The notes: generated by a model not told the origin, from the letters alone. Shown: positions 2,756 to 58,318, numbered from the stretch's first letter. The stretch: 64,000 nucleotides of DNA from an uncultured virus (IMG/VR IMGVR_UViG_3300038443_001555) (IMGVR_UViG_3300038443_001555); one strand, 5' to 3'. Numbers and translations are program-made.

Positions 2756-3553
2756 TTACGATTTGTCTGCGGCATCCAGGATCCGCAGGAGGTCTTGCCG
2801 CAGGTCGCCAGTCATCGGCCCACAGGCTTCCAGCGCTGGGTCGTCCCACACGCCCTGGATGCGCGCCCTTGCTGCGGCAATGCGAGCTTCGTGGGTGTGA
2901 GCGGGCAACGGCGCGCGGGCTACTTCCGCGAATTTCCGCAGTTGCTTGTACGTCATACACACCTTGAGGCCGTCGGGCGTTTCAATGGTCGTGGCATCCG
3001 GTGGCAGCATGTTCGCCAAGGTTTCGCCATTCAGCAGTGCACCCTCCCTGCTGTGTGCTGGGACAAGGGCTACAACGTCACGGGCAAATGCGCGGTAATC
3101 CTCGACGCCTCCCATCCCGGCATACTTGCGCGCTACAGCGTCAATCTGCTCGTCGGTCAGCGGTGCACGGGCAAGGGCTGCGCTGATTGCCGTGTTCACG
3201 ATGTCATATGTGGTGTCCTTTCCCGACTGGCGGCACTGGTACACGATGTCGTCGATTTCGGATTTCGACAGCGGGGCTTGTGGTGCGCCCTGCTGCGGAG
3301 ACCAATGGTTCGATTCCACTTCCCAGCCTGACGTATCAAGCGCCTCCCGGCTGGGTTGCGTCCCTTCTGTCCGTTGTGATGGGGCGCGGGCAATAGCTGC
3401 GCGGCGAGCGCGCTCCATCCATGCGTCGTGCGCAGCAGCACGGCATGCGTCGATCAATTGCCGCTCCTCACTGCCATCGCACGAAAGCGTCATGCAGAAG
3501 TAGTTTTCGAAGTCTTCTGATTCGCTCGCGCTTGCCGTGGTGTCGTTACTCAT
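2756..3553 (-). CDS. mosaic multi-module hypothetical protein
   Basis: Start MSNDTTASAS after GAGGA SD; short modules joined by Ala/Pro linkers. Confidence 0.7.
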   Translation of the reverse strand: MSNDTTASASESEDFENYFCMTLSCDGSEERQLIDACRAAAHDAWMERARRAAIARAPSQRTEGTQPSREALDTSGWEVESNHWSPQQGAPQAPLSKSEIDDIVYQCRQSGKDTTYDIVNTAISAALARAPLTDEQIDAVARKYAGMGGVEDYRAFARDVVALVPAHSREGALLNGETLANMLPPDATTIETPDGLKVCMTYKQLRKFAEVARAPLPAHTHEARIAAARARIQGVWDDPALEACGPMTGDLRQDLLRILDAADKS

Positions 3554-3797
3554 GGTTCGTTCCTCTTGGTTTATCGTCACGGCGCCACAGCACGAGCCGG
3601 AACCCGGTGCGCTTCGCTTGAATGCAGAATTTTGCGCGGTATCGCTTCGGCCCTGGCTCCCAGCCCTCGAAGCGATACAGGCCCGAGTCGCCGCCAGAGA
3701 TACGGCCACGTAAGTAGATGCGCTCAAACCAGTTCGCGCGAACGTAGCCGTAGCTATGGCCGGGCGTACCTGGCGCACGGAATCGGAATATTTTCAT
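3546..3797 (-). CDS. hypothetical protein
   Basis: ATGA coupling to upstream gene. Confidence 0.55.
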   Translation of the reverse strand: MKIFRFRAPGTPGHSYGYVRANWFERIYLRGRISGGDSGLYRFEGWEPGPKRYRAKFCIQAKRTGFRLVLWRRDDKPRGTNHE

Positions 3798-5212
3798 AGT
3801 TCGCGCGTGCCGCTATCGGTGGTTTGCGCTGCACCAGGGGCGGCGAAATTGGGTCGCGCGTCGTAGACCAATAGGGTGACGCCGTTCTTGTCGTGGTCGT
3901 CGTCCATGACCTCGTTGATGACGCCGAAATAACGATGGCCTGCATCGTGGTCGCCGGTGCTTACGTCCATCGACACTGACATGCCTTCGATGAAATCGCG
4001 CAGTGCGCCGACCATGCGCCCGTCGCGGTCAAGCCACTCGGCAGGCAGTGCGGGCTGGGCAGCTTGTACAGGGGCGCGGCGGTTGACCGACTGAACAAGG
4101 AATTCAGCAAATGCTTCGGCAGCTTTCCTCTCTTGCGCAAGCCCGTCCGTGTCCTTCAGCGAGCGCTGCGTATGGGTGTTGAATTCCATGACGACCTCGC
4201 CGTCAGCATCAAGGATGCTCACCACGTCACGGTGGTCAGTTGCCCACTTGAAAGGGAGAATGTAGCCGTAGCCGGGAGCCTCACCGCTCGCGCTTGCCGT
4301 GGTGGCCGCTTGGGGTGCGCGTTCCATGCGTGCAGCAAAATCATCGGGCGTGCGGTGGTAAAGCTGGCCGATTGTCGTGTCGCGGTAGATGGTGAGGTCG
4401 CACACAAGCACGTCGCGCATTGTGCCAGCGCCCTTGGCCGTGCCCAGCAGTTCATATTCGCCGCCCTTGCCGATGCAGGTATAGAGTTCGGCCTGCTGGC
4501 TTACCGCTTGGGGTGCGGTAGGGGTGAGGGATGCGCGGACAGCCTGATTTAGGACAGCGGCAAGTTGTGCGCGCCACTCGTCGGTGTGTGGCTTAGGTGG
4601 CTCTTGGTCGTAAATAAAACGGTCGAGTGCCGTTTCATCGGAGGTGCCCACGCGGTTGGCAGCTTCCAGATAGCTAGGAATCTCGCCCACCTGTCCGGCG
4701 CTCGGCTGGTCAGTAGATGCGAGGTATGCCGGGACGTTCCATTCGGCGTCGCGCGCTTTAGACGCAACGACAGTCTTGCCCGGCATGGTGCCGTCGATGT
4801 CACACAGGCGCACGTACAGGGCGGGTGCTTCGGGCGCGGCTTGCTGGGTGAGTGCGGCGATACGTTGCGCGAGCACTTCCTCGCCACTCAGCGGAGGTGC
4901 TTTCAAGAACTCGGCAACAACCGGCGCGTGAAGATCGGGGTGCGTAAGCATCATGCGCAGATGCCCGAGCGCCTGCATGCGGTGGCCGTCGAATTGAAGC
5001 GCGAGACGCCGCCAGCTATCCTCGGCGCTCTCTTCCTCATCGTCCGCCTGCTCGGTTACGTGCGGCTCGGCGCGGCGGGCGATGGCATCAGCGATCTTGT
5101 GCGCAAGATCGATCGATCCAGCGTTCTTGACGACGCCGTGAATATCCCAAAGCGTTTCATTGTCCAGGTCTACGCCTGCGGTTGCGCCAGTAGGGGTGGC
5201 GGGGTTAGTCAT
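3794..5212 (-). CDS. mosaic multi-module hypothetical protein (472 aa)
   Basis: Long ORF with AAAGGA SD; shares AGVDLD, AAPEA and ATTASAS linkers with 18052-18615. Confidence 0.75.
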   Translation of the reverse strand: MTNPATPTGATAGVDLDNETLWDIHGVVKNAGSIDLAHKIADAIARRAEPHVTEQADDEEESAEDSWRRLALQFDGHRMQALGHLRMMLTHPDLHAPVVAEFLKAPPLSGEEVLAQRIAALTQQAAPEAPALYVRLCDIDGTMPGKTVVASKARDAEWNVPAYLASTDQPSAGQVGEIPSYLEAANRVGTSDETALDRFIYDQEPPKPHTDEWRAQLAAVLNQAVRASLTPTAPQAVSQQAELYTCIGKGGEYELLGTAKGAGTMRDVLVCDLTIYRDTTIGQLYHRTPDDFAARMERAPQAATTASASGEAPGYGYILPFKWATDHRDVVSILDADGEVVMEFNTHTQRSLKDTDGLAQERKAAEAFAEFLVQSVNRRAPVQAAQPALPAEWLDRDGRMVGALRDFIEGMSVSMDVSTGDHDAGHRYFGVINEVMDDDHDKNGVTLLVYDARPNFAAPGAAQTTDSGTREL

Positions 5213-19879: not shown

Positions 19880-20400
19880 CTGTGATTTTGAGGGTGAGTG
19901 CAGAAAGTGCGGAATAGTCAGCCAGATAATTGGCTTAGTTTCCGGGAATTTAAACCGTTGCAAAAAGAACCATACAGAAAAATTGTTAAATGTTGATGTC
20001 TTGCTATGCGTAATTTTGGGTATAGTTCAGGTAATTATTTTTAGTTTGATAGGTAACCTATTAGGCACACAGAGAATTCAGGAATTATTGTGACCTTCGC
20101 AGGGTAAAACTGTGATCTTGAGGCACTTTTCAAAACAGAAGCGACCCTACCAAAAACGAACTTCAAGGCGAGGTCCAAATAGATTGACAGGAGAGAAAAA
20201 AATCAAAAACCTCCCAGCCTATTCCTTTCACCAAATCGACTTCGAACGTGCCCACAGATTATAGGATTACCTTTTTTAGGTATTTTTTAGGTCTGTGCTC
20301 TATGAAGAGGCTTGACTCACTTGTGTTTTAGCTGTGATACTGTACACAAGTGAGCTGTACGACTAACGGCACACCTTGCGAAACCCTTGCACCCACTACA
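19880..20400. promoter_or_regulatory. AT-rich divergent control region; candidate rightward promoter TTGACT-18-GATACT (20312-20341)
   Basis: Sharp drop in GC, A/T tracts, short repeats, divergent flanking genes. Confidence 0.55.
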
Positions 20401-20415
20401 ACTTTTGAGGCTCTC

Positions 20416-21180
20416 ATGAACGTAACTAATTACTTGCCAATTTTGCCGCCTGAAGAAGTTCACAAACACTTCGCGCTTGAGGGCTCGAGGCTGTATCGCA
20501 AGCTTGCGACCGGCCAGGGTACACAGCTTAAGAGCCGGGACGGCAACTATGTGGTCACGTTGTTCAAGGGTCACCGCATGCTGGGGGTGGATATCGCGTG
20601 GTGCCTGATCCATGGGAACTGGCCGATGTTTCCGATCGCCCAGATCAGTGCCGATCCTCTGGACTTCTCAGAAGGCAACTTGTTTCCGGCGCGACACCGC
20701 CGCCTGCGCTATGTGCAGAGGTTCAAGGCGGGCATGTATTTCCATCCCTTGAGCCAGTTTGCATACTCCAAGCCGGAGATGTGCCGTGCCGACTGGGAAG
20801 AGCGCGCTAAAGACATCTACCGGAAGGACCTTGCGTATGTGCTCAGGCTGGAGGCGACGCAGCGCGAGCAGCGCGAAATTTACCTGCGTGAGACACGCGC
20901 CATTCGCCGGCCGGAAGTTGTCAGGCCCGCGAAGGAGCCGCGCCCGTCACGGCCTTACGCCGTCCATGGTATGGAGTGGCACTGGTATGGGGGCGAGTGG
21001 ATCAGCGTGCCAGTGGCCTGCCATGTGGCGGATGATTATCGGCGTCGTATTCAGGCGTGGCAGGCTGGCGCGCGGGTTTTCGCCTTCGACCCTGAGTCGC
21101 GACAGGTGCACGCATACCTGCCTGATGGTACGCGCTGGGGTGCGGCACCAGCTGAGGCAGGTCAGCTGGCGCTGTTTTAA
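20416..21180 (+). CDS. degenerate HNH-fold protein
   Basis: IAWCLIHGNWP..PIAQISADPLDFSEGNL parallels HNH_3 consensus with catalytic H/N replaced; GAGG SD. Confidence 0.65.
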   Translation: MNVTNYLPILPPEEVHKHFALEGSRLYRKLATGQGTQLKSRDGNYVVTLFKGHRMLGVDIAWCLIHGNWPMFPIAQISADPLDFSEGNLFPARHRRLRYVQRFKAGMYFHPLSQFAYSKPEMCRADWEERAKDIYRKDLAYVLRLEATQREQREIYLRETRAIRRPEVVRPAKEPRPSRPYAVHGMEWHWYGGEWISVPVACHVADDYRRRIQAWQAGARVFAFDPESRQVHAYLPDGTRWGAAPAEAGQLALF

Positions 21181-22432
21181 GCCGCCTCAAGCGCTTGGTC
21201 TTCGAGGCGATCACGCTGGATGATCGCCTCGCGCCACGTCAGGCAGGTGGCCACGATCCGGCCGGTGTAGTGCTCGACTACGAAGCGGTCGGCGATCGGC
21301 TTGCCGTTGAAGCGGTCGGTGTCGGTGGTGCGGCGCGCGTTGAAGTTCATGGCTGTCTCCTGGAATTTTAAATATGCTTTTTGGGTGCAACTTTACAGGC
21401 CCTTGCTGCGCTTGATGATGTAGTCCTGCTTCTGCTCGTCCCAGACGGACAGCACGACGCCGTAGGCAGGGTTGGGCTTATTCCATGCGTCAAGGCCCGG
21501 CACGGCACGCGAGAATGCCTCGCTGGCCTGACCCTTGCGGGCGCCGATGTACACGATGGAATTCATGCCGCACGGCACACGCAGGCTGTCAGTGCGATCC
21601 ACGCGGTATTTGTTCGGGTCAGTCATGGCCGATCTCCTGTGCGATGCTGCGCACGCCTTCGTACAACATGATGGCATTGATGCCGATGATGATCCAGATC
21701 AATGCGCGGAACGCCAGCCCATAGGCCAGCAGCCCGTCAGGGCCGGCGGCTTGGGTATCGAGCGGGATCAGGGTCACGATCGTGATCATGGCCAGCAGGA
21801 TGCGGAGGTTTTTCATGGTGTCCTCGGTCAGGAGAAGTAGGCGACGGCCAGCGGCAGGCCGACAAACGCGATAAGGAAAGCAGCGGCGGCTTTCCAGTCT
21901 TGGAATTGACGCATGGCTCAGGCTCCTGCCGTGTCGTAGACATGGGCCGGGCCATTGCGCGTGGCCCACTGGATGCCGATCGGGCCCATGTTGCGATACT
22001 CCATCCAGACGTATTGGCCGTCATGGCAGTGGATCTGCTTCACTTCGCAGTCTGCCGGCATGTCGATAGTGAACGTGGCGCCAGCGGCCATGAGCGGCGC
22101 GGCAAGGGTTTCGAGGTCTTTGCGGGTGAAGGGTTTCATGTTGGACTCCAATTGAATGTGAGATTGGTGCGCTGTTCGGACTTGTCAGGGCGGTTCTTCG
22201 CGCCGGGCGCCAGCCTGAGTTCGTCAGGATCGTGGAATGTGCCGCGTTCGACCTGACGGACGCGTCCCGGTCGACGGAATTTGGGCGCCTGGACGAATTC
22301 GGGTTCGAACAGTTTCGAGCGTGACGCGGGTTCTGGCCGCTCGATTTTCGGGTGCGGCGGCGGCAAAGTTTTCGCATACGCGGCCGCATCGCACAGGGCC
22401 GTTTTAATCGGCAATTTCAATGTCCCTTTCAT
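21177..22432 (-). CDS. six small hypothetical genes (21177-21350, 21393-21626, 21619-21816, approx. 21813-21914, 21918-22139, 22136-22432); two are hydrophobic membrane peptides
   Basis: AGGAG/GGAGG SDs and coupled junctions. Confidence 0.6.
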
Positions 22433-22439
22433 GTTACCT

Positions 22440-23125
22440 CCAAGAAATATCGCTGTCCGACTCGGCGCCGCGTAGCAACCCGGCGGCAAGCCGGACAGAG
22501 TATTTCCTTTCCCTATTCGCGCCGGGAAAGGCGCTACCGCTTGCCAAAGCGGTTCCACTCATCGTGGCCGGACTCGCTAAGCCCGGTTTTCACTGCCGCA
22601 CAGTCTTTCCTGAATCGTTGGATCGCGTTATCTGCATGCCCGGTTTTGCCGGTTCGAGTCATTGTGTGCCCTGCGTTTCCCATTTGCGGTATCGCTTTAC
22701 TAGCCGACCCTGTAGCGCGCCGTTTCAAATTCGCGCATGGCGCAACCCGGTATTCTGGTATTGCGAACGCTATCTACATGCAGCCCGATATCATCGTTCG
22801 TCAACCTGAACGCTTCGCTTCCGACTGTGCTTTTCTGCTGATTGCCCATTCCGCAGTCCGCCTGCCTACCGTCCGAAGCGACGCCAGCGACGCCGCCGAA
22901 TCACGGCGCGAAGCTGGCGCACGACGGAACCGGCGCGCGGGTTAGCAGGTGGGCACGTTGTTAAAGATGGTTCCCGAAGCCGGGCGCGACACAGGCGAAT
23001 GGACGCAAGCGAAGCGGGACCGACGACGGCGCGCGCTATGTGCCAGCAGCGTTATGTGCTGGCGCGCGCAGAGACGCATATCAAGGGCTCTGGCCCTTGA
23101 TATGCGCCCCGCACGGGGCGCGATG
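22440..23125 (-). ncRNA. candidate large structured non-coding RNA or leader
   Basis: No convincing ORF; more than 10 stems, several with G-U pairs only on the minus strand. Confidence 0.55.
22958..22968 (-). promoter_or_regulatory. boxA-like antitermination motif ATCTTTAACAA
   Basis: Matches the core of rrn boxA (GCTCTTTAACAA). Confidence 0.55.
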
Positions 23126-23126
23126 G

Positions 23127-23861
23127 TTAGGCGGTTTCGGGTTCGTCGGCGACAATTTCGCCGCTGGCGGCGCGCGCCAGCAGGATTTGCGTTTCGCGCA
23201 ATTGCGCTGCACCGATTACCATACGTTCCGTATCCGCGTCCAGCGCGCCCGTACGCATGGCATCGGCGATGATGCGCGCCATTTCGGACAGCGAGACTTC
23301 TCGTGCGCCCGCCAGCTTTTCGGCTTCGGTCTTGATGGTCTGTTGCAGCTCTTTCGCCTGCGCTTTGGCTTTCGCCTCACGCTTGACTTTGGCAGCTGCG
23401 GCCGCTTCGGTGCGCTCAGCTTCAGTCTTTTCAGGCATGCTGACAGTGGCGACGAAGTGCGACGCGAATTCGTTCGCGTAGGCGTCCGCCAGCGGGTCTA
23501 GCACGGCGTGACGTGCCGCTTTATCGGCTGGCAGTTCCTTTTGCATGTCGGACGGTACGCCCATGTGGTCGAGCGTGATCTGTAGCGCAAAATAGGTCTT
23601 GCGGAAGTGTTTCACGGTGGCATTGACCGTCTTGACGCCCAAAAGCTCTTTGATGCGCTTGGTCGTTTCGGTGGAATCGCTGCCGTACATTTTGGCGTCT
23701 TCGATCAGCTTGTTGAACTGGGTCTTGTTGCCCGCTTGCATGAGGCTATACGCTGCGCTGTAGACCGTGCATGCGATCATGTCGAATTGGGATTCCGGCG
23801 CGCCAGCGAAAGCGCGGAAAAAATCAGACATCGCGATGTTGCGGGATTGAACGGCTTTCAT
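23127..23861 (-). CDS. hypothetical protein, first gene of the leftward early operon
   Basis: 244-aa ORF, AGGAG SD, Ala/Lys/Glu-rich helical C-terminus. Confidence 0.75.
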   Translation of the reverse strand: MKAVQSRNIAMSDFFRAFAGAPESQFDMIACTVYSAAYSLMQAGNKTQFNKLIEDAKMYGSDSTETTKRIKELLGVKTVNATVKHFRKTYFALQITLDHMGVPSDMQKELPADKAARHAVLDPLADAYANEFASHFVATVSMPEKTEAERTEAAAAAKVKREAKAKAQAKELQQTIKTEAEKLAGAREVSLSEMARIIADAMRTGALDADTERMVIGAAQLRETQILLARAASGEIVADEPETA

Positions 23862-24036
23862 GTGAGGCTCCTAAATGTTAACTACGGTCGATCCGGCAAT
23901 CGTTGCCGGCTGGCCACTGTGGCCGGGCAAAACTGAACTACGAGACGTAACTATGAGGGAAAAATTGTGTTGTTTCTAATTGTATTTATTAATTACTTTG
24001 GCGAATCGATAGCGAACGCCTATGCCGGCGGTAAGC

Positions 24037-24091
24037 TGGCCAGACCAGGATGGCAAAGTGGTTAGACCAGTTGGCGCAATTGGCCAGACCA
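24037..24091. repeat. three 11-bp repeats TGG(CC/TT)AGACCA at 22-bp period
   Basis: Starts at 24037, 24059, 24081. Confidence 0.8.
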
Positions 24092-24319
24092 AAATGTTAA
24101 ATCTGCCTGTTATTTAGGCAAAAATCGACGGTTTTGCTTTTGGGCAATGCGGTTTAAACGCGTTAAACGGGCCTGTACGCGGCCTAGACGGTGCGCGGAA
24201 GGATGTTCACGGTAATTGTGTCGTCGCTTGTGGCGGGTTCTGGCGCGTTCTGGACGGGGGTACTTTCTAGGAGGCAATCGGGCGCCGGCGCCTACCTGGG
24301 CCCCCAAAAATACGCGCCC

Positions 24320-24490
24320 CATTTTCAAACTTTTTGCCATCCCAACAAAGTCTGCTATTTCACCCACTTTTTGCCACTTTTGCCCACTTTTTGCCATTTT
24401 TCCTGAAAATTTTTAGAATTTTTGAAATTTTTGGCAAATTTTTGGCGATTTTGGCACAAATCCCGCCAAGATCCCGCCAAAATCTTCAAG
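24320..24490. repeat. phased T-tract repeats (CCACTTTTTG / AATTTTTGGC-like, ~10-11 bp period)
   Basis: Directly visible. Confidence 0.75.
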
Positions 24491-24502
24491 ATTGCTAGGC
24501 AA

Positions 24503-24526
24503 AAATCATGCCATGTGGCATGATTT
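24503..24526. promoter_or_regulatory. perfect 11-bp inverted repeat AAATCATGCCA-TG-TGGCATGATTT overlapping an extended -10 (TG-G-CATGAT)
   Basis: Palindrome just upstream of the HTH gene ATG at 24531. Confidence 0.65.
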
Positions 24527-24530
24527 CGCC

Positions 24531-24818
24531 ATGCTAAGCGAGAAAATCAAACCCTACATCGAGCAAATCCGTCGGCGCGAGCTCACCAATCGCGAGGTAG
24601 CGGCCCTGCTCGGCACGCACGAAACCTACGTTTGCCGTGTGCTCAAGCGCATGAAGGTGGAGCGCGACCCAATCATCAAGCCGCCCAGCACCAAGGAGCT
24701 CAACGCTGCGCGCGCTGAATTCCGCCAGGAGGTCGCCACGACCATGACCGCGAAAGAAGCGGCCAAGGCGGCCGGCTGCAGCCTGCGTACCATCTACCGG
24801 ATCCGGGGCAAGAAATGA
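24531..24818 (+). CDS. tandem HTH DNA-binding protein
   Basis: LTNREVAALLGTHETYVCRVLKR and MTAKEAAKAAGCSLRTIYRIRG. Confidence 0.75.
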   Translation: MLSEKIKPYIEQIRRRELTNREVAALLGTHETYVCRVLKRMKVERDPIIKPPSTKELNAARAEFRQEVATTMTAKEAAKAAGCSLRTIYRIRGKK

Positions 24819-37414: not shown

Positions 37415-40400
37415 ATGAGCGACAACATCGATATTCCAATCGAAGCGAGTGGCGACGACGGCGTCAACCGGCTGACGTCTGCGATCGATCGCCTGACCGC
37501 GTCGATGGAGCGCCTCGGCGAGACCAGCGCTGCCGGCAACCTCGCCAAGCAGATGGAGCAGATGCAGGGCGCCATGAACACGGCCCTCGGCACGCTCACC
37601 ATGCAGATGCAGGAGATGAAGCAGGTGTTGGCCACCGGCTTCGCCGACATCTCGGCCACCAACGAGAAGCTGATCGAGGGTATGGGCGCGCGCCAGGTGC
37701 GCGCGATCGAAGAGAGCGGCGAGAAAGCCGCAGCCGCGCTCGATGCGGCGGGCCTGAAGATCAAGGCCGCCGACGCCCGTACCTGGGAGCAGATCGGGCG
37801 CGGCTCGGCCAGCAACGTCACGGCCGCCTTCTATCAGCTTGCGCAAGGCATCCCGGTCGAGGCGGTCGAAGCGCGCTTCGGCCAGCTGGCCACCAGCACG
37901 GCGGCCGGCCTGAACGGGCAACTCGAGCAGCTCAAGCAGTTCCAGGCCAACGCCAAGTCCCTGTACCAGACCGATTACAAGCCGCTGGCCGGCGCTACCG
38001 CTGCCGAGATCGAGCAGGCGAATGCCATGAACGCCGCCTGGGGCGATGCGATGCGCGTCAAGTCGGCGTCGAATGTCGATCCGCGCACGCTGCTCGGCTT
38101 GCCTAGCGAGGCTGAGGCCCGCTCTATTGGCCGCTCCATTGCCGCGCAGTTCCGCGCTGGCGTGGCCGAAGAGAAGGCGGCCCTCAGCGTTGACCCTCGA
38201 ACTCTGCTCGGCCTGCCCGCTGAGGCGGAAATGAAGGCGTTTGGTACCCAACTTGCCATCGAGATGCGTACTGCCGCCGAGCGTGCGGGTGCTGCGTCGA
38301 GCGTCGACCCGCGCACACTGCTTGGATTGCCGTCAGAAGCTGAGTCGCACTCTATCGGGCGCTCAATCGCCGCGCAATTCCGGGCTGGCGTCGAAGCCGA
38401 AAAGACCACAGTCAGCGTCGACCCGCGCATACTGCTCGGCCTGCCGTCCGAAGCCGAGATGCATGCCTTCGGTACCCAGCTGGCCATCAACATGCGTACG
38501 GCAGTCGAGGAGGAATCCTTACGCGCGAAGTCGGCACCGAGTGTCGATGCCCGCACGCTGCTGGGCCTGCCGAGCGAGACCGAGGTGCGCTCGATGGGCC
38601 AGCAGATCGCCGCCCAGATGCGCGAAGCTGCGGCGCTGGAACAAGCCAAACTCCGGCTGAACACGCTTGACGCCGCTTACGCTACCGCCAGCCCGACGTC
38701 GCAGGTGCGCACTGCAGCGCAGGCCCAACTGCTCGCCTCTATGTCGGGCCAGGAGGCTGCTGCGCAGCGCTTCGGCCCGCTCGCGGCGTCCGCGGGTGCA
38801 CTGGCAGCCGCCGAGGCGCGGTTGGCCGAATCCGCTGCTGCCGCCGGCCTTGCCCACGGCGGCCTGAACGGCGCACTGCGCCAGGCCGAAAGCGTCTTCA
38901 AGGGCGCCGCCCATGAGGCGGGCGTCTACGGTCTGGCGCACGGCCAGCTGATCGCGCTGCTCGCCGGCGGCGCCCTCGCCGCGGCCTTGCACCACATCGC
39001 CGAGACTGGCGCCGAGGTGCAGTTCGAGCTGGCATCCCTGAGCGCCTTCAGCGCTTCGATGGAGCCTGTCGACGTCAACAAGTTTGTCGGCATCACGGCA
39101 GGCACCCTGACTGGCCTGAAAGACGCCGCCGAGGGTGTGCATGCGCTGGCCGAGGCCGGGCTAAACCAGACCCAGGCATTCGCTGCACTGCCGGACGTGA
39201 TGCGCCTTGCCTCACTTGGCGAGATGAGTGTGGCGCAGGCTGCTGAGATGGGCGTCGAATCGATGCATGCCTTCGGCAAGGAAGTAGCAGATCTCGACCA
39301 AATCGGCGACATCCTGGTCGCCGTCGGCACCAAGTCGAACGTCTCGGTACACAGGCTGGCCGAGGACATGAAGAGTGCCGCCACAATGGGCGAGCTGCTC
39401 GGCATGACCATGGAAGAAACGGCGGCCGCCGTCGGCACGCTGGCCGAGCGCGGCCTGACCATCCAGCCATTGTCGTCGGCCATGCTCAAGCTGTACGAGC
39501 CGTCGGACAAAGCTGCCAAGGTGATCAAGCAGCTGGGGCTCGAAGTCAAGGACCAGGCCACCGGCGCCTTCCGCCCCTTCAGCGACATCATCGCTGACCT
39601 ATCTGGCAAGCTGATGCAATTTTCCAGCTCTGGCGCCACCGATACCCTCAAGGCCATGGGTTTCTCCTCGCGCGACATCAAGGCGATGGAGGCGATGACC
39701 CAGCATCTCGACGACTATCAGCACCTGCTGCATGAGGCCGAGAACTCGCAAGGCAAGATGTTCGATGCGATGACGGTCAAGGAGGATACGGTCAAGGGCG
39801 CCTGGGAGCGCCTAGGCAGCACGCTGGACGGTACTCTCGTCAAGGGCTTCCAGAACGCCAGCCCGGTGATTCAGCAGGTCGAGAATGACCTGATGCACCT
39901 GGTCGGCAGCGGCGGCGCGGTGGAGCTGGTGACCAACCTTGCGGCTGGTTTTGCGCGGCTGACGCAGGTGCTGGTCGAGAATGCCGGAATCATCGGCAGC
40001 GTTGTTGCCGGCTACGTGGCCCTGAAGGCGATCTCCGGCTTGACCACGCTGACTGTGGAATTCACGGTGGCCGAACTTGCGGCCACGCGCGCCATGGCAG
40101 CGAATCGAGTCGAGACGGCTGCCGCCGGTGCGCAGCTTTCCCTGTTTGCGGTGGAAGAAGAAGCTGCCGGCGCTGGCGCTGGTGCGCTAGAAGCTCGGCT
40201 GTTGGCCGCTGGCGCTGGTGCACGTCTGTTTTCGGCAGCTTTCGGCTGGATCGCCGTTGCGGCGACCGCTGCTATTACCGCTTACGAGCTGCTGTCAGGC
40301 AAGGTCTCGGAAGTCGACGGCAAATACCAGGCCGCCATCAACACCTCCAACACGACGATCGACGCCTACGACCGCGAGATCGAGCGCCTGCGGGAGATGA

Positions 40401-43400
40401 ATTACCAGCTGGAACACGTCGGCACCAACGCCCAGGAGGCCGGCGGCAAGCTTGCCCTTATTGGCCTGCAGGGCCAGAAGGCCCAGCTGGAACTGTCGCT
40501 GCAGCAGTACGACAGCAAGATGGCAGCATACAATCGCGGTGAAGGCCCGAACCCGATGGGCTGGAGCTGGAACGACCCGCGCAAGGAGCTTCAGGGGCAG
40601 CTTGACCAGGTCAACGAGGCGTTGGCAAAGCTCGGCCAAAAACAGACCGAGATGGCTGCCGAACGCTCGAAAAACTCGCTGCTGGAGGATGCCAGGAAAA
40701 TCAATGACGCGCTGGCGCACATCCCGCTCGCCGACGACATGTCGGCCAAGTTGGGCATCAAGGATCCGGCGGTCATCCAGAGCCTGCAAGAGCGCCGCAA
40801 GGAGATCCAGTTCACCGTCGTCGATGAGAAGAACCACGCTGAAGTGCTCGAGAAGGTCAAGCAGCTGGAACTGGATATCAACGCAGCCAAGAAGCCGGGC
40901 CTGACGCCTGTTGTCGGTGACAAGGATATCGCGCGCGTGCGTATCGAGCAGCTGCAGGAAGAGCTGCGCTTGATGCAGGAAGCCTCCAAGATCCGCGTTG
41001 ATGACTTGAAGTCGCAGAACAAGCGCGGCGATCTGGGCGACCTGCAGCTGATCAACGAGGAGTTGGCCGAGAAGCTGAAGCTGGATCAGAAGGCACTCGA
41101 CATGGCCATCGCCGAGAAGGCCGCAGCCGGCCCGCTCAAGCCGGGTCAGCAAGAGCGCTACAACAGCCGTATCAAGTCGGCTGCGGCGCGTCTCGGGCCG
41201 GACGGCCTCGACGCTCAGGCCGCCGAGCGCCAGCGCCTCGACGCTATCGATCAGATGAACACCGAGGAGCTGCAAGCGCGCGCCAAGGCGCTGGCCAGCA
41301 TGGGCCAGCTCGAGCAGGCCTACCTGATCGGCTGGGAAGCCAAATACGGCGACACGCTTGCGCGCATCAATGCCGACATCGCCGACAGCCGCAACGAGGC
41401 ATATCGGCAGGACCTGGAGCGCTACAAGGCCCACCTGGAGGAGATGCGCCGGCTGGGCGCCAACGACGCCCGCTTCAGGGAGGCGAAGAACGACTTCGGC
41501 GCGGCGTCGGCCGAGCTCAACCAGCGCCTGAACTACCTGCGCCTGCAGAGCGGCCCGGGCACCGGGCTGGGCTCGCAGCTGAGCAACATGGCTGACCAGC
41601 GAGACGTCTACGCCGACATGCTGCCGCAGATGCAGGCTGCACAGAGCCGCGTGCAGGCGCTGTCGTCGGTGATGTACTCGGGCCCGGACGCCAAGGAAAA
41701 GCTGAAGGAGGCCAAAAACGAGCTGGCCGAGATCCAGAGCCAGATGGCCGCCATGCGTAACGCCGCGGTCACCATGGGCGAAGCCATCGCCAAGGCCTTG
41801 ACCGAAGCCTACGGCAAGGGCGGGGCGGCGTTGGGCGGCATGATCACCACGGCCACTGCCTACGACACGAAGATGAAGGAGATCCAGGCGACGCTTGCCA
41901 GCTCCGGCAACACCGAAGCCGACAAGCAAAAGGCCGCCGAGGCCACTGCCTCCGCCCAGATCAAGGCCTACAGCGACATGGCCGGCGCAGCCAAGGGCTT
42001 CTTCGACGCCAACTCGAACGGCTACAAAATCATGGCGGCCGCCGAGAAGGCGTTCCGCGTGATGGAGCTGGTCGAGGCGGGCGCCACGCTGGCCAAGAAG
42101 CTCGGCTTCAAGACGACCGAGGTGACCGCCACGGTCGCCGCCGATGGTATCAAGACCGCCAGCGGCACCGCCGCCACCGCGGCGGACGTCGCCAACGCTG
42201 GCGCCTCGTCGTCGGCCTGGGGCATCACCGCCGTGGTCAAGGCCATCGCCTCGATGCCGTTCCCGATGAACCTTGTGGCCGGCGCCGCCACCCTTGCCGC
42301 CGTCACCGCCGTCGGTGCCAAGGTGATGGGTGCCTTCGGCGGCAGCGACACCACGGCGCAGGACCGGCAGGCTGCCCAGGGCACTGGCACCGTGCTGGGC
42401 GATCCGAACGCCAAGACCGACTCGATCGCCAAGTCGCTCACGCTGATCCAGCAGAACACCTACGACGGCCTGACCGTGTCGCAGGGCATGCTCACGTCGC
42501 TGCAGGCCATCGAAACCAATATCAGCAGCTTTGCCGGCCTGCTGATGCAGACCGCAGGCTTCAGCACCACAGCGGCCGGCACCGACCTGAGCGCCGGCAT
42601 CGGTGCCTCGATCCCGCTGGTCGGTCATCTGCTGTCGTCGATCTTCGGCGGCAAGCAGACGCTCGACGACACCGGCTTCACGATGAACGCCGCGACCCTT
42701 GGCCAGATCGCCAGCCAGGGTGTGAGCGCCAGGACGTATGCCGACATCACCACGTCGGGCGGCTGGTTCCGCGGCGACAGCCACGACACCAAGACGATGG
42801 ACCTGTCGTCGGCGGCCAACCAGCAGATCGGCCAGATCATCACCAGCATCGGCGACACCGTGAAAGCGGCCGGCGCCGCGCTGGGCCTGGACGGCAACCA
42901 GCTGGCGGCCCAGCTGAGCGGCTTCGTGGTCGACATCGGCAAGGTGAGCCTGAAGGGCCTGTCCAGCGCCGACCAGCAGGCCGCGATCCAGGCCGTGTTC
43001 TCGAAGCTGGGCGACCAGATGGCGTCCTCCGCGGTGTCGACCATCACCCAGTTCTCGAAGGCCGGCGAAGGCGCGCTCGAGACCTTGACCCGGGTGGCCA
43101 CCGACTACCAGGCGGTCGATGCTGTGTTCAAGTCGTTCGGCACGACCTTCGGTCAAGTGGGCACCGCTTCGATCGCCGCGCGCGAGAACCTGATCAATCT
43201 GGCTGGTGGCCTCGACAAGTTCACCAGCCAGGCCGAGTACCTGCTGAAGAACTTCCTGACGCAGGGCCAGCAGGCCGCCGCGCTGCACGCCGCGATCGAC
43301 CCGACCCTGGCCAAGTACGGCCTGTCGACCAGCAGCGCGAACGCCCTGCAGCAGTTCGCCAACGTCACCATCGCCTTCGGCCAGATGGGCGACGCTGGCG

Positions 43401-44791
43401 CGGCCGCGTACACCGAGCTGATGCAGATCGCGCCGGCCTTCAAGAGGCTGGTCGACGCCGGCCAGGACCTGCAGAACCAGCTCAATCAGCTGACCCTGAA
43501 CCAGACCCAGCAGGATGCGATCGCGCGCGCCCAGCTGGACCCGGCCAACCAGGCGCTGTTCGATCAGGTGCAGCAGGCCAAGCTGGTGTCGCAGGCCAAG
43601 GCCGACCTGGTCACAGCCTACCAGGCCGAGAGCCAGTCGATCCAGACCGCAATCGACCGCCTGAAGTCGTTCAGCCAGTCGCTGCGCTCCTTCGTCAACT
43701 CGCTGCAGCTGGGCGCCCTGTCGCCACTGAACCCGACCGATAAGTACGGTGCCGCGCTGGCCCAGTTCAACGACACGCTCGTCAAGGCGCAGCATGGCGA
43801 TACCGTCGCCCAGAGCAACCTGCAGTCGGCGGCGCAGGCCTTCCTGCAGGCCTCGCGCGACGCCAACGCATCGAACAGCACCTACCAGGCGGACTACCAG
43901 CGCGTCGTGGCCGCGACCAGTGGCATGGCCGATTGGGCCGACAGTCAGGTCAACGTCGGTCAGGCCAGCCTGAACGCCCTGCATGACCAGGTCGCGCAGC
44001 TGGTCGACATCCATACGGCCACCATGACCGTCGCGGATGCGATCAACAACCTTGCGATCATTATGTCGGCAGGCAAGGACACGTCGATCAACAGCACGAC
44101 GCTGGATACCTTGTACAAGGAGCTGCTGGGCCGTCCGGCCGACGACGCCGGCAAGGCGTTCTACCAGGACCTGCTCAATCGCGGCATCCCGCTGTCGGTC
44201 GTCATTGACGACATCACGCACAGCGCCGAGTACGCCAGCTACACCGCGATGAAGACGCCGACGTCGACGGTCACGCCCAGCACTGGTGGCGGCTCCGTCG
44301 TGTCGATGCCGGCATCCCCGGTCGTCTCGGCACCCAGCCCGACGCTGCAGATCGACACCCTCTACCAGCAGATTCTCGGCCGCCCGGCTGACGCCGCGGG
44401 CGAGGCCTACTGGGTCGACCGGCTACAGAATGGTGTACCTCTGTCGACCATCGCTGACGCAATGCGCCAGAGCACCGAGGCCCGGAATCCGGCCACGGCA
44501 ACCGTGGCCCCGCCGGCATCGGTGACCGAGGCGCCGGTGGTCGACAACACGCCGCCGGCGAGCGATCCGTACGCCGGCATCGTGGCGTCGAACGCGCAGA
44601 TCGCCGCGCAGCTGGCCGCCGTCAACCAGAACATCACCCAGCTGCGCACCGAGCAGCAGGTGCAGACCGACCAGCAGGTCACCGCAACCATGCAGGCCGG
44701 CGCTGACACCGCGGATAACGTGGCCGGCGCCATCACCGAGGCCAGCCGCGCCACGGCTTGGACTGCCGCCAACAAAGTGGAACTCCGATGA
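37415..44791 (+). CDS. tape measure protein (2458 aa) with N-terminal 38-aa repeats and C-terminal DUF4214-like pair
   Basis: Very long Ala-rich helical ORF after chaperones; minor-tail core (LAEAGL...ALPDVMRLA...DIL..G.KSN). Confidence 0.93.
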   Translation: MSDNIDIPIEASGDDGVNRLTSAIDRLTASMERLGETSAAGNLAKQMEQMQGAMNTALGTLTMQMQEMKQVLATGFADISATNEKLIEGMGARQVRAIEESGEKAAAALDAAGLKIKAADARTWEQIGRGSASNVTAAFYQLAQGIPVEAVEARFGQLATSTAAGLNGQLEQLKQFQANAKSLYQTDYKPLAGATAAEIEQANAMNAAWGDAMRVKSASNVDPRTLLGLPSEAEARSIGRSIAAQFRAGVAEEKAALSVDPRTLLGLPAEAEMKAFGTQLAIEMRTAAERAGAASSVDPRTLLGLPSEAESHSIGRSIAAQFRAGVEAEKTTVSVDPRILLGLPSEAEMHAFGTQLAINMRTAVEEESLRAKSAPSVDARTLLGLPSETEVRSMGQQIAAQMREAAALEQAKLRLNTLDAAYATASPTSQVRTAAQAQLLASMSGQEAAAQRFGPLAASAGALAAAEARLAESAAAAGLAHGGLNGALRQAESVFKGAAHEAGVYGLAHGQLIALLAGGALAAALHHIAETGAEVQFELASLSAFSASMEPVDVNKFVGITAGTLTGLKDAAEGVHALAEAGLNQTQAFAALPDVMRLASLGEMSVAQAAEMGVESMHAFGKEVADLDQIGDILVAVGTKSNVSVHRLAEDMKSAATMGELLGMTMEETAAAVGTLAERGLTIQPLSSAMLKLYEPSDKAAKVIKQLGLEVKDQATGAFRPFSDIIADLSGKLMQFSSSGATDTLKAMGFSSRDIKAMEAMTQHLDDYQHLLHEAENSQGKMFDAMTVKEDTVKGAWERLGSTLDGTLVKGFQNASPVIQQVENDLMHLVGSGGAVELVTNLAAGFARLTQVLVENAGIIGSVVAGYVALKAISGLTTLTVEFTVAELAATRAMAANRVETAAAGAQLSLFAVEEEAAGAGAGALEARLLAAGAGARLFSAAFGWIAVAATAAITAYELLSGKVSEVDGKYQAAINTSNTTIDAYDREIERLREMNYQLEHVGTNAQEAGGKLALIGLQGQKAQLELSLQQYDSKMAAYNRGEGPNPMGWSWNDPRKELQGQLDQVNEALAKLGQKQTEMAAERSKNSLLEDARKINDALAHIPLADDMSAKLGIKDPAVIQSLQERRKEIQFTVVDEKNHAEVLEKVKQLELDINAAKKPGLTPVVGDKDIARVRIEQLQEELRLMQEASKIRVDDLKSQNKRGDLGDLQLINEELAEKLKLDQKALDMAIAEKAAAGPLKPGQQERYNSRIKSAAARLGPDGLDAQAAERQRLDAIDQMNTEELQARAKALASMGQLEQAYLIGWEAKYGDTLARINADIADSRNEAYRQDLERYKAHLEEMRRLGANDARFREAKNDFGAASAELNQRLNYLRLQSGPGTGLGSQLSNMADQRDVYADMLPQMQAAQSRVQALSSVMYSGPDAKEKLKEAKNELAEIQSQMAAMRNAAVTMGEAIAKALTEAYGKGGAALGGMITTATAYDTKMKEIQATLASSGNTEADKQKAAEATASAQIKAYSDMAGAAKGFFDANSNGYKIMAAAEKAFRVMELVEAGATLAKKLGFKTTEVTATVAADGIKTASGTAATAADVANAGASSSAWGITAVVKAIASMPFPMNLVAGAATLAAVTAVGAKVMGAFGGSDTTAQDRQAAQGTGTVLGDPNAKTDSIAKSLTLIQQNTYDGLTVSQGMLTSLQAIETNISSFAGLLMQTAGFSTTAAGTDLSAGIGASIPLVGHLLSSIFGGKQTLDDTGFTMNAATLGQIASQGVSARTYADITTSGGWFRGDSHDTKTMDLSSAANQQIGQIITSIGDTVKAAGAALGLDGNQLAAQLSGFVVDIGKVSLKGLSSADQQAAIQAVFSKLGDQMASSAVSTITQFSKAGEGALETLTRVATDYQAVDAVFKSFGTTFGQVGTASIAARENLINLAGGLDKFTSQAEYLLKNFLTQGQQAAALHAAIDPTLAKYGLSTSSANALQQFANVTIAFGQMGDAGAAAYTELMQIAPAFKRLVDAGQDLQNQLNQLTLNQTQQDAIARAQLDPANQALFDQVQQAKLVSQAKADLVTAYQAESQSIQTAIDRLKSFSQSLRSFVNSLQLGALSPLNPTDKYGAALAQFNDTLVKAQHGDTVAQSNLQSAAQAFLQASRDANASNSTYQADYQRVVAATSGMADWADSQVNVGQASLNALHDQVAQLVDIHTATMTVADAINNLAIIMSAGKDTSINSTTLDTLYKELLGRPADDAGKAFYQDLLNRGIPLSVVIDDITHSAEYASYTAMKTPTSTVTPSTGGGSVVSMPASPVVSAPSPTLQIDTLYQQILGRPADAAGEAYWVDRLQNGVPLSTIADAMRQSTEARNPATATVAPPASVTEAPVVDNTPPASDPYAGIVASNAQIAAQLAAVNQNITQLRTEQQVQTDQQVTATMQAGADTADNVAGAITEASRATAWTAANKVELR

Positions 44792-55405: not shown

Positions 55406-57601
55406 TTAAACAGTGATGATGCGGTCGGCGACAGCGTCGACCAAGTCGTTATGGCTGATCGTGATGATCTGGCCAAAGTTCAGCGTCGACAGCATGCCAA
55501 GCATGCGGGTCTCGCGCGCGTCGCTGCAAGCCGCGCCCGGTTCATCCAGTTGCAGCATGTCGATGCCCGGCAGGAAGGTCTTCGTGAGCGTGATGCGCAT
55601 CGCCAGCCCAAGCATGTCTTCGGCCGAGCCGGACAGACCCGAGACCGGGAAGCCGTTGCACTTGAACATGCCGTCGGCCCGGGTAATGACGGAGTCGCTG
55701 CCGCGCACTTCGGAGAAGTGCTTCGAGACGCCGGCCAGCACGATGTTCCACAGCTTGTTCGTGATGACCGGGCGCGCCGCGCGTACCTTCTTGATGAGCA
55801 GGTTGTACTTCTGCATGGCGGCCAGCTCACCTTGGGCCTGCTCGAGCTGGGCACGCACCTGGGCCATCTGGCGCTGGGCCTGCTCGGCCAGCGCCTCCTT
55901 GGTGGCGAGGTCAGCCTTGAGAGCTGTCCATGCCCGAGCCATTTCAGCCAGTTTGGCCTCCTTCACCTTGATCAGGTCGGTCAGCGCCGCCGCGCGCGCC
56001 AGCACCCGACCAGCCGCCTCGAGGTTCAGCTTCTGGCGGAAGCTGACGTCAGCTTCGCGCGCCGCGACCAAACCGGCGCGCTGCTTCGTTTTCTCGCCGC
56101 GGCGCGCGGCGTCCTGCAGCGCCTCGCGCGCGAGCGTCTCGAGATGGGCCAGCTGATTGGCGGCACCGCGCGTGCCGCTCACGGCCGGAGCCGGACCGGT
56201 CCAGCGCCACTGGCCCGGTACCACTCGGCGGTCGACCTCGATGAAGTCGGCGGCGCGCGCGTACAGCTGCTCGACCTTGGCATTAACGGTAACGACAGCC
56301 TGCAGGTCGCGCAAGTAACTGCGGTACTCGACAGCGTCCTGCCTGGCCAGGTCGCGCAGCTTCTCGCGCTCGCGGATCTTATCGTCCAACTCGCCAGTGG
56401 CACGGATGGTCTGCGACTTGAGCTCGTTGATCTGGCGCTGCAGGTCGCTGTTCGTGCGCACCACCTCCGGCACGTCGGTCAGATCTTTCTGGCACAGCGC
56501 ACAGGTGGTCTCCTTGATCAGGCGCCCTTCCAGCTGAGCAGTCTTCACGGCGCTGTCGCGTCGCGCGTCGGACAGCTGCCGCTCGAGGTTGGCCAGCACC
56601 ACGGCAGAGTCATCAGCACGCTGCGACGCCTGGTCCAGCTTCTCCTGCGTCGTCATGATTTCAGCCTCTAGCGATGCCAGATCCTTGTCCCATTGTACTG
56701 CCGTGTCGGCACGCTCCAGCTCCGCGCGCAGCAGCTCCGCGCGCGCCCGGTGCTTCTCGCGCTCGACCGCCTCGCGCGCGGCCGCGAGCTCGGCGTCGCT
56801 CGGCCCCAGCACGGCCGGCCTGGCCAGCTCGCGGTCGATCTCGTCGATTTCATAAGTCAGCTGCTGGATGTCGCGGCTGCGTGTGGCGTGCTCGTTCGTG
56901 CAGTTGGTGGCGCCGGCGACGTCCAACTCATCGAGCTGCGCACGCAAGTCAGCAAGCGCCGACTGAGCCATCGTCACGTCGTGCTCAGCATCCACAACCT
57001 TTTCGCGCAGTGGCCCTAGGTCCTCTGCTGGCGTCTCCACCAGCTGCGCCTGCAGCGCCGTGATGCGCCCCTCGACGCCCGCCGTGTTGCCGGTCTGGCG
57101 CCGCGTGGCGATGCTTTCCGCCACGCGGTCGATCAGGTCGAAGTTGGCCAAGTCCTCGATCATGCGCCCGGCGTCGGTCGGGCCGGCCTTGAGCGACTCG
57201 GCTAGACTCTTCTGCGAGGCGAACATCAGCTTGCCGGCCATCTTGGCATCGGTACCGAACAGGTCCTCGAAGAACTTCGTCAGCTCGCGCTGGCCAGTGA
57301 CCAGCACCTTGCCGCCGGCCGACACCTCGGCCCCGGACTTGCCGCGGTAGCCGGTGTAGGTCACGCCTAGGTGCTCGAGCTCGACATCGACGCGCAACTT
57401 GGAGACCGGCTGGTGGTAAGTCACAACGTGCTCGAGTGATTCGCGCAACGCGCCGGCGCCGAAGCAGAAGTAGGTGAATGCTTCGAGGCACGTCGTTTTT
57501 CCTGCCTCATTCGGACCGCGGACTGCATTCATCCCAGGCCCGAATTCAAATTCGCGATCTTGGTGCTGGCGGAACGAGGTAAGTTTCAATTTCTTTAACA
57601 T
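55406..57601 (-). CDS. SbcC/Rad50-like ATPase
   Basis: GPNEAGKT Walker A, coiled coils, CALC hook, LSGSAE signature, LDEP Walker B, ISH. Confidence 0.92.
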   Translation of the reverse strand: MLKKLKLTSFRQHQDREFEFGPGMNAVRGPNEAGKTTCLEAFTYFCFGAGALRESLEHVVTYHQPVSKLRVDVELEHLGVTYTGYRGKSGAEVSAGGKVLVTGQRELTKFFEDLFGTDAKMAGKLMFASQKSLAESLKAGPTDAGRMIEDLANFDLIDRVAESIATRRQTGNTAGVEGRITALQAQLVETPAEDLGPLREKVVDAEHDVTMAQSALADLRAQLDELDVAGATNCTNEHATRSRDIQQLTYEIDEIDRELARPAVLGPSDAELAAAREAVEREKHRARAELLRAELERADTAVQWDKDLASLEAEIMTTQEKLDQASQRADDSAVVLANLERQLSDARRDSAVKTAQLEGRLIKETTCALCQKDLTDVPEVVRTNSDLQRQINELKSQTIRATGELDDKIREREKLRDLARQDAVEYRSYLRDLQAVVTVNAKVEQLYARAADFIEVDRRVVPGQWRWTGPAPAVSGTRGAANQLAHLETLAREALQDAARRGEKTKQRAGLVAAREADVSFRQKLNLEAAGRVLARAAALTDLIKVKEAKLAEMARAWTALKADLATKEALAEQAQRQMAQVRAQLEQAQGELAAMQKYNLLIKKVRAARPVITNKLWNIVLAGVSKHFSEVRGSDSVITRADGMFKCNGFPVSGLSGSAEDMLGLAMRITLTKTFLPGIDMLQLDEPGAACSDARETRMLGMLSTLNFGQIITISHNDLVDAVADRIITV

Positions 57602-57602
57602 T

Positions 57603-58271: not shown

Positions 58272-58318
58272 CAGTCCTCCAATAATGTAGTGTTACCGAA
58301 AGATAACTCTACTGGAGG

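Follow-up and report, generated by a model that had tools for sequence, protein, structure and literature searches.

A large covarying RNA with a boxA-like unpaired joiner in the leftward early operon of a soil siphovirus

We analysed a 64,000-nt stretch of DNA (hereafter the window) from an uncultured virus of the IMG/VR collection (IMGVR_UViG_3300038443_001555), and in particular the 694 nt of its minus strand that separate the stop codon of one early gene, here termed 'up', from the start codon of another, termed 'dn' (22433..23126). This element is almost certainly a functional structured RNA, and it stands second in a leftward operon, after the first gene 'up' and near the promoter. It recurs at the same place in related viruses, encodes no conserved protein and folds into four domains, the last with a pseudoknot, while the joiner between its first two domains carries a conserved unpaired sequence that resembles boxA. 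We tentatively favour, at somewhat below even confidence, a role as a cis-acting RNA platform that would ride with RNA polymerase and prevent termination, nucleated at this boxA-like site by a mechanism that we infer.

Homologues were collected from IMG/VR by protein-anchored searches and pattern scans. Eight contigs (12.6 to 93.5 kb) have the element between homologues of 'up' and 'dn', so that with the window the arrangement holds in nine of nine genomes; the terminases of five complete relatives are 82-89% identical to that of the window. The element measures 676-730 nt in seven of the nine homologues. In the eighth (L006) the gap is 929 nt, with a small open reading frame (ORF) inserted after the RNA, and in the ninth (L024) the RNA is shortened to ~465 nt by the absence of its central domain and is likewise followed by an inserted ORF. 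These inserted small ORFs, each with its own Shine-Dalgarno (SD) sequence, separate the 'dn' homologue from the 3' end of the RNA (at ~2679-2900 on the minus strand of L006 and ~3726-3905 on the plus strand of L024), and the junction between RNA and 'dn' seems to be a favoured insertion point. The flanking proteins form 25 ('dn') and 33 ('up') clusters at 90% identity, which indicates a clade larger than the nine sequences compared; the RNA has been seen so far in one clade of ~85-93-kb soil siphoviruses. Pattern matches in metagenome and genome collections (3 + 3, L015 and L016 being the same contig) came to five loci searched, none of which fits our covariance model of the RNA (R1), and two matches to a looser IMG/VR pattern (L028 and L034) hold the pattern itself only, with no covariance-model match; all were set aside as chance. 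Model R1 likewise had no match in two genomes, and in 151 genomes of the order of genome G006 it returned one 24-bit match, judged a chance hit, in which both the 3' rod and the conserved loops are missing.

The segment does not behave as coding sequence. A preliminary description of this DNA, made from the window alone, had called the gap non-coding, and comparison of six homologues bears this out: every sense frame holds 4-19 stops in each of them, one homologue (L005) has at least seven stops in each of the six frames, and the substitutions lack a 3-base periodicity, mismatch counts being flat over codon positions in all 15 pairs. Opposite-strand ORFs of 197 and 129 amino acids are present in the window, as is common in sequence of ~61% G+C. 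A protein-coding reading of 22433-23126 is refuted.

Comparison of the nine sequences instead supports helices in every domain, and covariation, the absence of which would have told against the preliminary description, proved abundant. RNAalifold, applied to all nine, predicts 141 pairs, 83 of them with compensatory change on both sides. In all four domains 89-98% of cells are paired, compared to 25-58% in slid controls, and none of 500 shuffles reaches the observed covariation score in any domain; the cells count sequences and not independent events, and since the nine sequences fall in few subgroups the independent changes are fewer than the cell counts suggest. The predicted helices contain 113 G-U cells and 13 A-C cells. 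They were predicted on the minus strand, which itself favours G-U, and the ratio is still large; because the 113 G-U cells would be mismatches on the opposite strand, the RNA is placed on the minus strand, in agreement with the strand assignment first made from G-U pairs. Folding energy is less informative. The fold is better than that of dinucleotide shuffles, with a single-sequence z of -3.15 on the minus strand against 20 shuffles per strand; the plus strand is equally so (z -3.47), and an energy excess on both strands gives neither function nor strand.

All features of the RNA are numbered on the window and read 5' to 3' on its minus strand. The first domain, D1 (23126-22974), comprises four hairpins, with 93.3% of cells paired and 30 of 48 pairs changed on both sides. 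A small hairpin right after the 'up' stop codon (P1, 23106..23119, GCCCC/GGGGC; 97.6% paired, 4/5 pairs changed) leads into P2 (23075..23106), whose perfect 14-bp stem (23106-23093 with 23088-23075) had been noticed in the window sequence and is conserved with compensatory changes, 13 of its 16 pairs aligned across relatives having changed on both sides. P3 (23030..23070) is a two-part hairpin (2/7 and 5/6 pairs changed on both sides) with a loop, AACGCU (23053-23048), that is conserved in at least eight of the nine sequences, and P4 (22974..23029) is irregular and the weakest of the domain (73-91% of cells paired, 6/14 pairs changed). After the unpaired boxA-like joiner, D2 (22955-22843) forms a long irregular rod closed by UGCCCA/UGGGCA, with 89.4% of cells paired compared to 27-58% in its slid controls and 11 of 20 pairs changed. 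The rod recurs in the per-sequence folds of most homologues; of five measures, that of further pair types does not exceed shuffles in this domain (137 of 500 reach its value). D2 contains the conserved run CGCUUCG (22880-22874) and the stem GCGCCAGC (22920-22913)/GCUGGCGU (22888-22881), which had been proposed earlier and is present on the minus strand; only part of it was tested, and part is paired with covariation in the full-length fold.

The central domain is the variable one. A joiner of conserved alignment columns (AUCAGCAGAAAAGCAC, 22827..22842) connects D2 to D3 (22598..22830), a multi-branched domain closed by GCACAGUC/GACUGUGC. Six relatives have one D3 architecture (31 of 64 pairs changed on both sides, 96.2% of cells paired), and the window and L002 have a different one, common to both, with 11 pairs changed on both sides between them. 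L024 has neither D3 nor the preceding joiner: its variant RNA (3260-3725, plus strand) keeps D1, D2 and D4 and retains the boxA-like motif with one change. Two stems proposed earlier involve this part of the molecule and fared less well. The stem CGCAAU (22765-22760)/GUUGCG (22746-22741) is indeed present, its sole support being the two-sequence fold of the window and L002, and the long-range pairing of CGCUUCG with CGAAGCG is unsupported, as that same fold pairs CGAAGCG (22817-22811) inside D3. A 10-nt repeat, AAAACCGGGC, does occur twice as reported, at 22647-22638 and 22590-22581.

The 3' domain, D4 (22586-22443), consists of three hairpins, a pseudoknot and a terminal rod, and has 97.7% of cells paired and 25 of 43 pairs changed, figures that lean towards the structure, their alignment having been fitted to the covariance model. 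The core hairpins (22536..22586; 96-100% paired) are Pa (22586-22568, three pairs changed on both sides), Pb (22567-22555, three pairs changed, its covarying 4-bp stem capped by an invariant GAUGA pentaloop) and Pc (22553-22536, two pairs changed), the last of which holds a 14-nt conserved run, CGCUUUGGCAAGCG. This run, the CGAUGAG of the Pb loop, the CGCUUCG of D2, the AACGCU of the P3 loop and the unpaired CUUUAACAA between D1 and D2 are the longest runs identical in at least eight of the nine sequences. An H-type pseudoknot follows (22508..22534), in which S1 (GCGCC 22534-22530/GGCGC 22523-22519) is paired in 9/9 and nearly invariant, and S2 (UUUCCC 22529-22524/GGGAAA 22513-22508) is complementary in 9/9 through five different sequence versions. 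Mean pairwise nucleotide identity over the three hairpins and the pseudoknot is 83%, compared to 64% for the 'up' gene and 63% for 'dn' (amino acid identity 58% and 60%, respectively).

The 3' rod (22443..22507) is built of a basal helix, a 12-bp stem and an inner stem with a conserved apical GGUUGNUACG. The basal helix (GGAAAUA 22507-22501/UAUUUCU 22449-22443) forms in all nine sequences, with A-U, U-A and C-G at one of its pairs; every one of the 12 pairs of the 12-bp stem (22498-22487/22464-22453) and five of the seven of the inner stem have changed on both sides. Four of the stems read from the window at the outset belong to D4, lie on the minus strand and show compensatory changes in relatives, namely CCGGGCUU (22586-22579)/GAGUCCGG (22575-22568), ACCGCUU (22553-22547)/AAGCGGU (22542-22536), CCUUUCCC (22531-22524)/GGGAAAGG (22513-22506) and CUGUCCGGCUUG (22498-22487)/CGAGUCGGACAG (22464-22453). 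The stable hairpins at either end of the RNA were considered as intrinsic terminators and rejected. Neither P2 nor the 3' rod is called by a terminator scan or is directly followed by a free U-tract: the sequence after P2 has no clear U-tract and is not U-rich in most homologues, and the U-rich tail of the rod, which covaries to AUUACC in three of nine homologues, pairs with the upstream GGAAAUA, so that the 3' hairpin is not an intrinsic terminator. A long-range covariation scan showed in addition that CGCUU of D2 (22880-22876), identical to the 5' strand of Pc, could pair with AAGCG (22542-22538) in the 3' strand of Pc. L002 changes this pair together (CGCCU with AGGCG), the same change giving a U-G pair inside Pc; the two segments may form an alternative pairing or switch, a single event being too little to claim one.

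Nothing known was found to be homologous to this RNA, and its broad kind, large phage RNAs of undefined function, has precedents. At gathering score, Rfam 15 returned no match anywhere in the window, its models including GOLLD, ROOL, OLE, RNase P, transfer-messenger RNA (tmRNA), introns, ribozymes and riboswitches, consistent with the class not having been recognized by eye. Permissive Rfam searches of 22300-23300, 22433-22610 and 22800-23126 gave hairpin-level matches only (E of at least 0.65, far below gathering), and those of the eight homologous loci gave only two matches of microRNA models to the P2 hairpin (E of at least 0.29). ARAGORN found no transfer RNA (tRNA) or tmRNA gene in the window. 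A group I or II intron was considered and rejected: no intron model matches, and 'up' and 'dn' are complete in the homologues examined, with separate stop, SD and start signals, which rules an intron out. The RNA was not found described in the literature searched, and we consider the class probably undescribed. The main doubt on novelty comes from a catalogue of 10,006 candidate structured RNAs (csRNAs) from IMG/VR viruses (Fremin, Bhatt and Kyrpides 2023, PMC10690425), in which parts of the RNA may figure unnamed. That work is alike in its source, IMG/VR intergenic regions, and in its use of covariation evidence (CMfinder/R-scape there); the csRNAs described in the consulted portion of the paper are mainly tRNA-like structures, terminators and short cis-regulatory structures, and a large multi-domain RNA is not among them. 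The preliminary description had proposed a large phage non-coding RNA or an antitermination or processing leader, possibly of an undescribed class, and this is supported on all three of the points that could have told against it, there being no conserved ORF, ample covariation and a fold better than shuffled controls.

Unpaired sequence provides the clearest lead to function. The joiner CAUCUUUAACAAC (22957..22969), ~160 nt from the 5' end of the RNA, has a core, CUUUAACAA (22966-22958), that is the longest conserved unpaired run of the element (9 nt, of which eight columns are identical in 9/9). Written YCUUUAACAA, the joiner is unpaired in most single-sequence folds and resembles boxA, the single-stranded RNA site at which NusB-NusE starts the assembly of antitermination complexes (as outlined in the relevant part of PMC3177189). 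We compared it with the boxA of rrn (UGCUCUUUA) and of lambda (CGCUCUUA) and with the consensus GYTCTTTAANA, which, according to the pertinent section of PMC5725501, was derived for gamma-proteobacteria; the nine homologues agree with this consensus at 9-10 of 11 positions. Furthermore, the 10-mer UCUUUAACAA is an exact match to part of the E. coli rrn boxA-spacer, the RNA of which reads ugcucuuua and then acaauuua (PMC2724277 Table 1). The weight of the match, to be used with care, rests on the 9/9 conservation, the unpaired state and the exact 10-mer, and by sequence resemblance the motif would lend some substance to the antitermination alternative. In lambda, boxB is bound by N, and in rrn leaders boxB precedes boxA. 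Here P3 and P4 precede the boxA-like motif, with loops that differ from boxB, and Pb, with its 4-bp stem and invariant 5-nt loop, is in the general format of lambda boxB (a 5-bp stem and 5-nt loop; PMC2724277), which is a weak pointer.

We hypothesize, on this basis, that the RNA belongs to the minus-strand transcript of the leftward early operon and acts in cis as an oversized platform of the nut or rrn-leader type. The exposed boxA-like joiner would bring NusB/NusE and further Nus factors of the host to its RNA polymerase during transcription; the folded domains, chiefly the highly conserved 3' core of three hairpins and a pseudoknot, would stay tethered to the polymerase and may cooperate with the small, basic and probably disordered 'dn' protein; and the polymerase would thereby become resistant to Rho and other terminators over the 700 untranslated bases and the ~24-kb operon. 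An untranslated stretch of 700 nt within an operon should need protection from Rho. The location, close to the promoter and behind the first gene of a long operon read in one direction, resembles that of lambda cro-nutR, and lambda N is a small, basic and disordered protein encoded just after nutL. The lambda nut and rrn-leader antiterminators (boxB/boxA/boxC; NusA, B, E and G) are thus alike in an unpaired boxA-like sequence (with UCUUUAACAA in the E. coli rrn boxA-spacer), in being nascent RNA near the start of a long operon and in the surrounding hairpins with conserved loops, and lambda nut also in a small basic protein encoded next to the RNA, here the predicted disordered 'dn'. Nus factors can, moreover, block Rho-dependent termination without lambda N (from the same section of PMC5725501).

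Several observations weigh against such a platform. This RNA differs from the nut and rrn systems in its size, its four covarying domains and its pseudoknot, and in a boxA-like motif that is internal and has no adjacent boxB-type hairpin, the best boxB-like hairpin, Pb, lying ~390 nt downstream. The nut, rrn and put signals known so far measure tens of bases, about ten times less, and nothing accounts for a need for 700 nt, four domains and a pseudoknot. HK022 put consists of two short stem-loops (~70 nt) and needs no Nus factors; it is alike in idea, a folded nascent RNA on the polymerase giving resistance to termination without a dedicated protein, and was compared by description and Rfam searches. 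The boxA comparison itself draws on sequences other than that of the phage's own host; the copy in the window has two mismatches to the 11-nt consensus, which occurs with at most two mismatches at chance frequency in the window (24 found, 27.7 expected), and since the resemblance was found by recognising a motif it carries a look-elsewhere cost. Intrinsic-terminator-like sites are not enriched in the operon (12, compared to 14.1 expected). As for a protein partner, 'dn' has no arginine-rich N-terminus, no relative of known function was detected for it, and another small ORF stands between the RNA and 'dn' in two of nine genomes.

In a broader and rather doubtful version of the antitermination idea, the RNA would represent a new class of large 'ornate' phage RNA that has its own boxA and exploits the host transcription machinery of the rRNA type. 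Nus factors would here both protect the RNA and chaperone its folding, and the RNA would stay on the polymerase as a processive antiterminator; alternatively, within the same version, the bulk of early RNA might soak up NusB/NusE and so starve the host rRNA operons. A role in folding has a counterpart at rRNA, where Nus factors mainly promote folding (as stated in that part of PMC5725501 devoted to rRNA). If such Nus loading were true, rRNA would no longer be the only large structured RNA with a Nus-loading site of its own.

Nearly as likely as the cis-acting platform, and not exclusive of it, is a stand-alone, trans-acting large non-coding RNA, a possibility to which we attach real if minority confidence: it would be a ribonucleoprotein scaffold, a decoy or an RNA-only assembly, cut from the early transcript or stabilised within it by its terminal hairpins, and the boxA-like motif would only guard it from Rho and aid co-transcriptional folding, as for rRNA. 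The size, the four domains and the pseudoknot are typical of large functional RNAs, each end has a stable covarying hairpin (P2 and the 3' rod, respectively), and the excess conservation of the 3' core over the flanking genes points to specific tertiary or protein contacts. The form of the RNA is also unchanged when another ORF follows it (L006 and L024), which, together with the dispensable D3, makes a simple translational leader of 'dn' less likely; the 3' region is constant and the central domain varies and can be deleted. GOLLD is divided in a similar way, being constant in its 3' region and more variable elsewhere, and GOLLD and ROOL are alike in being phage-encoded RNAs of 0.6-0.8 kb with elaborate covarying structure and pseudoknots (both as summarized in the accessible text of PMC12286853). 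Unlike them, this RNA fails their Rfam models, is embedded between protein genes of an early operon and has no tRNA genes nearby, such neighbours being found at many GOLLD and ROOL loci (in the same account, PMC12286853). Further against independence, a discrete transcript is hypothetical, a scan found no promoter or terminator belonging to the RNA, and no partner or target was recognised, sites complementary to two conserved unpaired motifs occurring only at chance level in the window.

That the RNA is a ribozyme or a self-processing element, cleaving the polycistronic transcript of the early genes, is improbable. Catalysis is frequent among large RNAs of high conservation that have pseudoknots and conserved unpaired joiners, and both features are present here; against this, the permissive Rfam searches found no known ribozyme family, and the complete flanking genes exclude an intron. 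We consider a replication or packaging element, either an origin primer RNA or a structure at the DNA level, likewise improbable. The element does lie 0.7 kb from a divergent control region with phased A/T-tract repeats, and cumulative GC skew peaks at 23-24 kb, but the skew changes where gene direction does, the imbalance of G-U over A-C cells indicates selection at the RNA level on one strand and not DNA cruciforms, and the only direct repeat examined in the element is the 10-nt AAAACCGGGC in two copies, no repeat scan of the element having been run. A hidden coding gene, a pseudogene or fast-evolving junk with stems due to high G+C can practically be dismissed, for despite the two opposite-strand ORFs and a single-sequence fold z of only about -3, no frame is open across homologues, mismatches are even over codon positions, and neither slid controls nor shuffles approach the observed pairing and covariation.

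To our knowledge, bacterial and phage RNAs above about 500 nt with comparable conserved structure are few, and those that are understood are almost all ribozymes or the cores of RNA-protein machines. A further class, unrelated to GOLLD and ROOL, which form RNA cages (as reported in the accessible text of PMC12286853), widens the short list of large structured RNAs. For this class there are already nine sequences, a secondary structure open to testing and, in L024, a natural variant from which one domain is deleted, and the boxA-like site offers a concrete handle on function; if real, that site would connect the Nus system with a large structured RNA in a non-lambdoid phage.

The two flanking proteins gave no functional lead in Pfam, PHROGs, PDB sequence profiles, the ESM Atlas, AlphaFold2 or Foldseek. 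The 'dn' gene (22136..22432, minus strand; ATG 22432, stop 22136; 98 amino acids) is preceded by the SD sequence GGAGG (22441-22437); the proteins of its 25 clusters are all named hypothetical and all have an isoelectric point above 10 (25/25). Disorder is predicted for 'dn', with an AlphaFold2 predicted template modelling score (pTM) of 0.19 and a single 7-residue helix, and an ESM predicted local distance difference test score (pLDDT) of 0.27. The 'up' gene (23127..23861, minus strand; 244 amino acids), the first of the leftward operon, has homologues in 33 clusters, likewise all hypothetical, and belongs to no significant Pfam or PHROG family; its AlphaFold2 model is all-alpha (pLDDT 81) and has no fold match in the PDB at E<=0.001.

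The source genome is that of a siphovirus of ~85 kb from soil metagenomes, most of which is covered by the window. A rightward module encodes the large terminase (TerL), portal, protease, major head protein, tail terminator, tape measure (2458 amino acids) and endolysin; replication and repair genes occupy the minus strand at the right end of the window; and the leftward block, from 23861 down towards position 1, consists of small genes, mostly without assigned function, in an operon of ~24 kb. The DNA of the window is present in 10 DNA sequencing runs from soil or rhizosphere, with no RNA run among the listed holders. Among GenBank phages, neither blastn of the region nor tblastn of the 'up' protein gave a match, and the identity of TerL to that of known phages is at most about 30%.

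Other parts of the window yielded observations of their own. The divergent control region (23862-24490), between the leftward operon and the rightward genes, contains phased A/T-tract repeats (TTTTTGCCA / TTTTGGCA) every 9-11 nt (six copies, repeat family D1, not to be confused with the RNA domain) and an inverted repeat of 34 nt that is imperfect; sigma-70-like sites of both orientations lie at 24391-24437. The region has the look of curved DNA or of an operator or iteron array, possibly serving the DNA-binding protein encoded at 24492-24818. Within the minus-strand operon, a plus-strand ORF of 276 amino acids (20350-21180) lies in a patch of low G+C (0.52), with its own promoter-like site (20312-20341) and a terminator-like hairpin (21148-21169) and no PHROG match, and has the appearance of an inserted moron. 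A pair of related HNH endonuclease ORFs (57603-58271 and 59368-59988, minus strand) flanks an SbcD-like gene (58319-59371), and an SbcC-like gene (55406-57601, minus strand) adjoins them, the cluster spanning 55406-59988; with a third HNH ORF at 255-1046, these are probably homing endonucleases. Finally, the tape measure gene (37415-44791, plus strand) implies a very long tail for a genome of ~85 kb.

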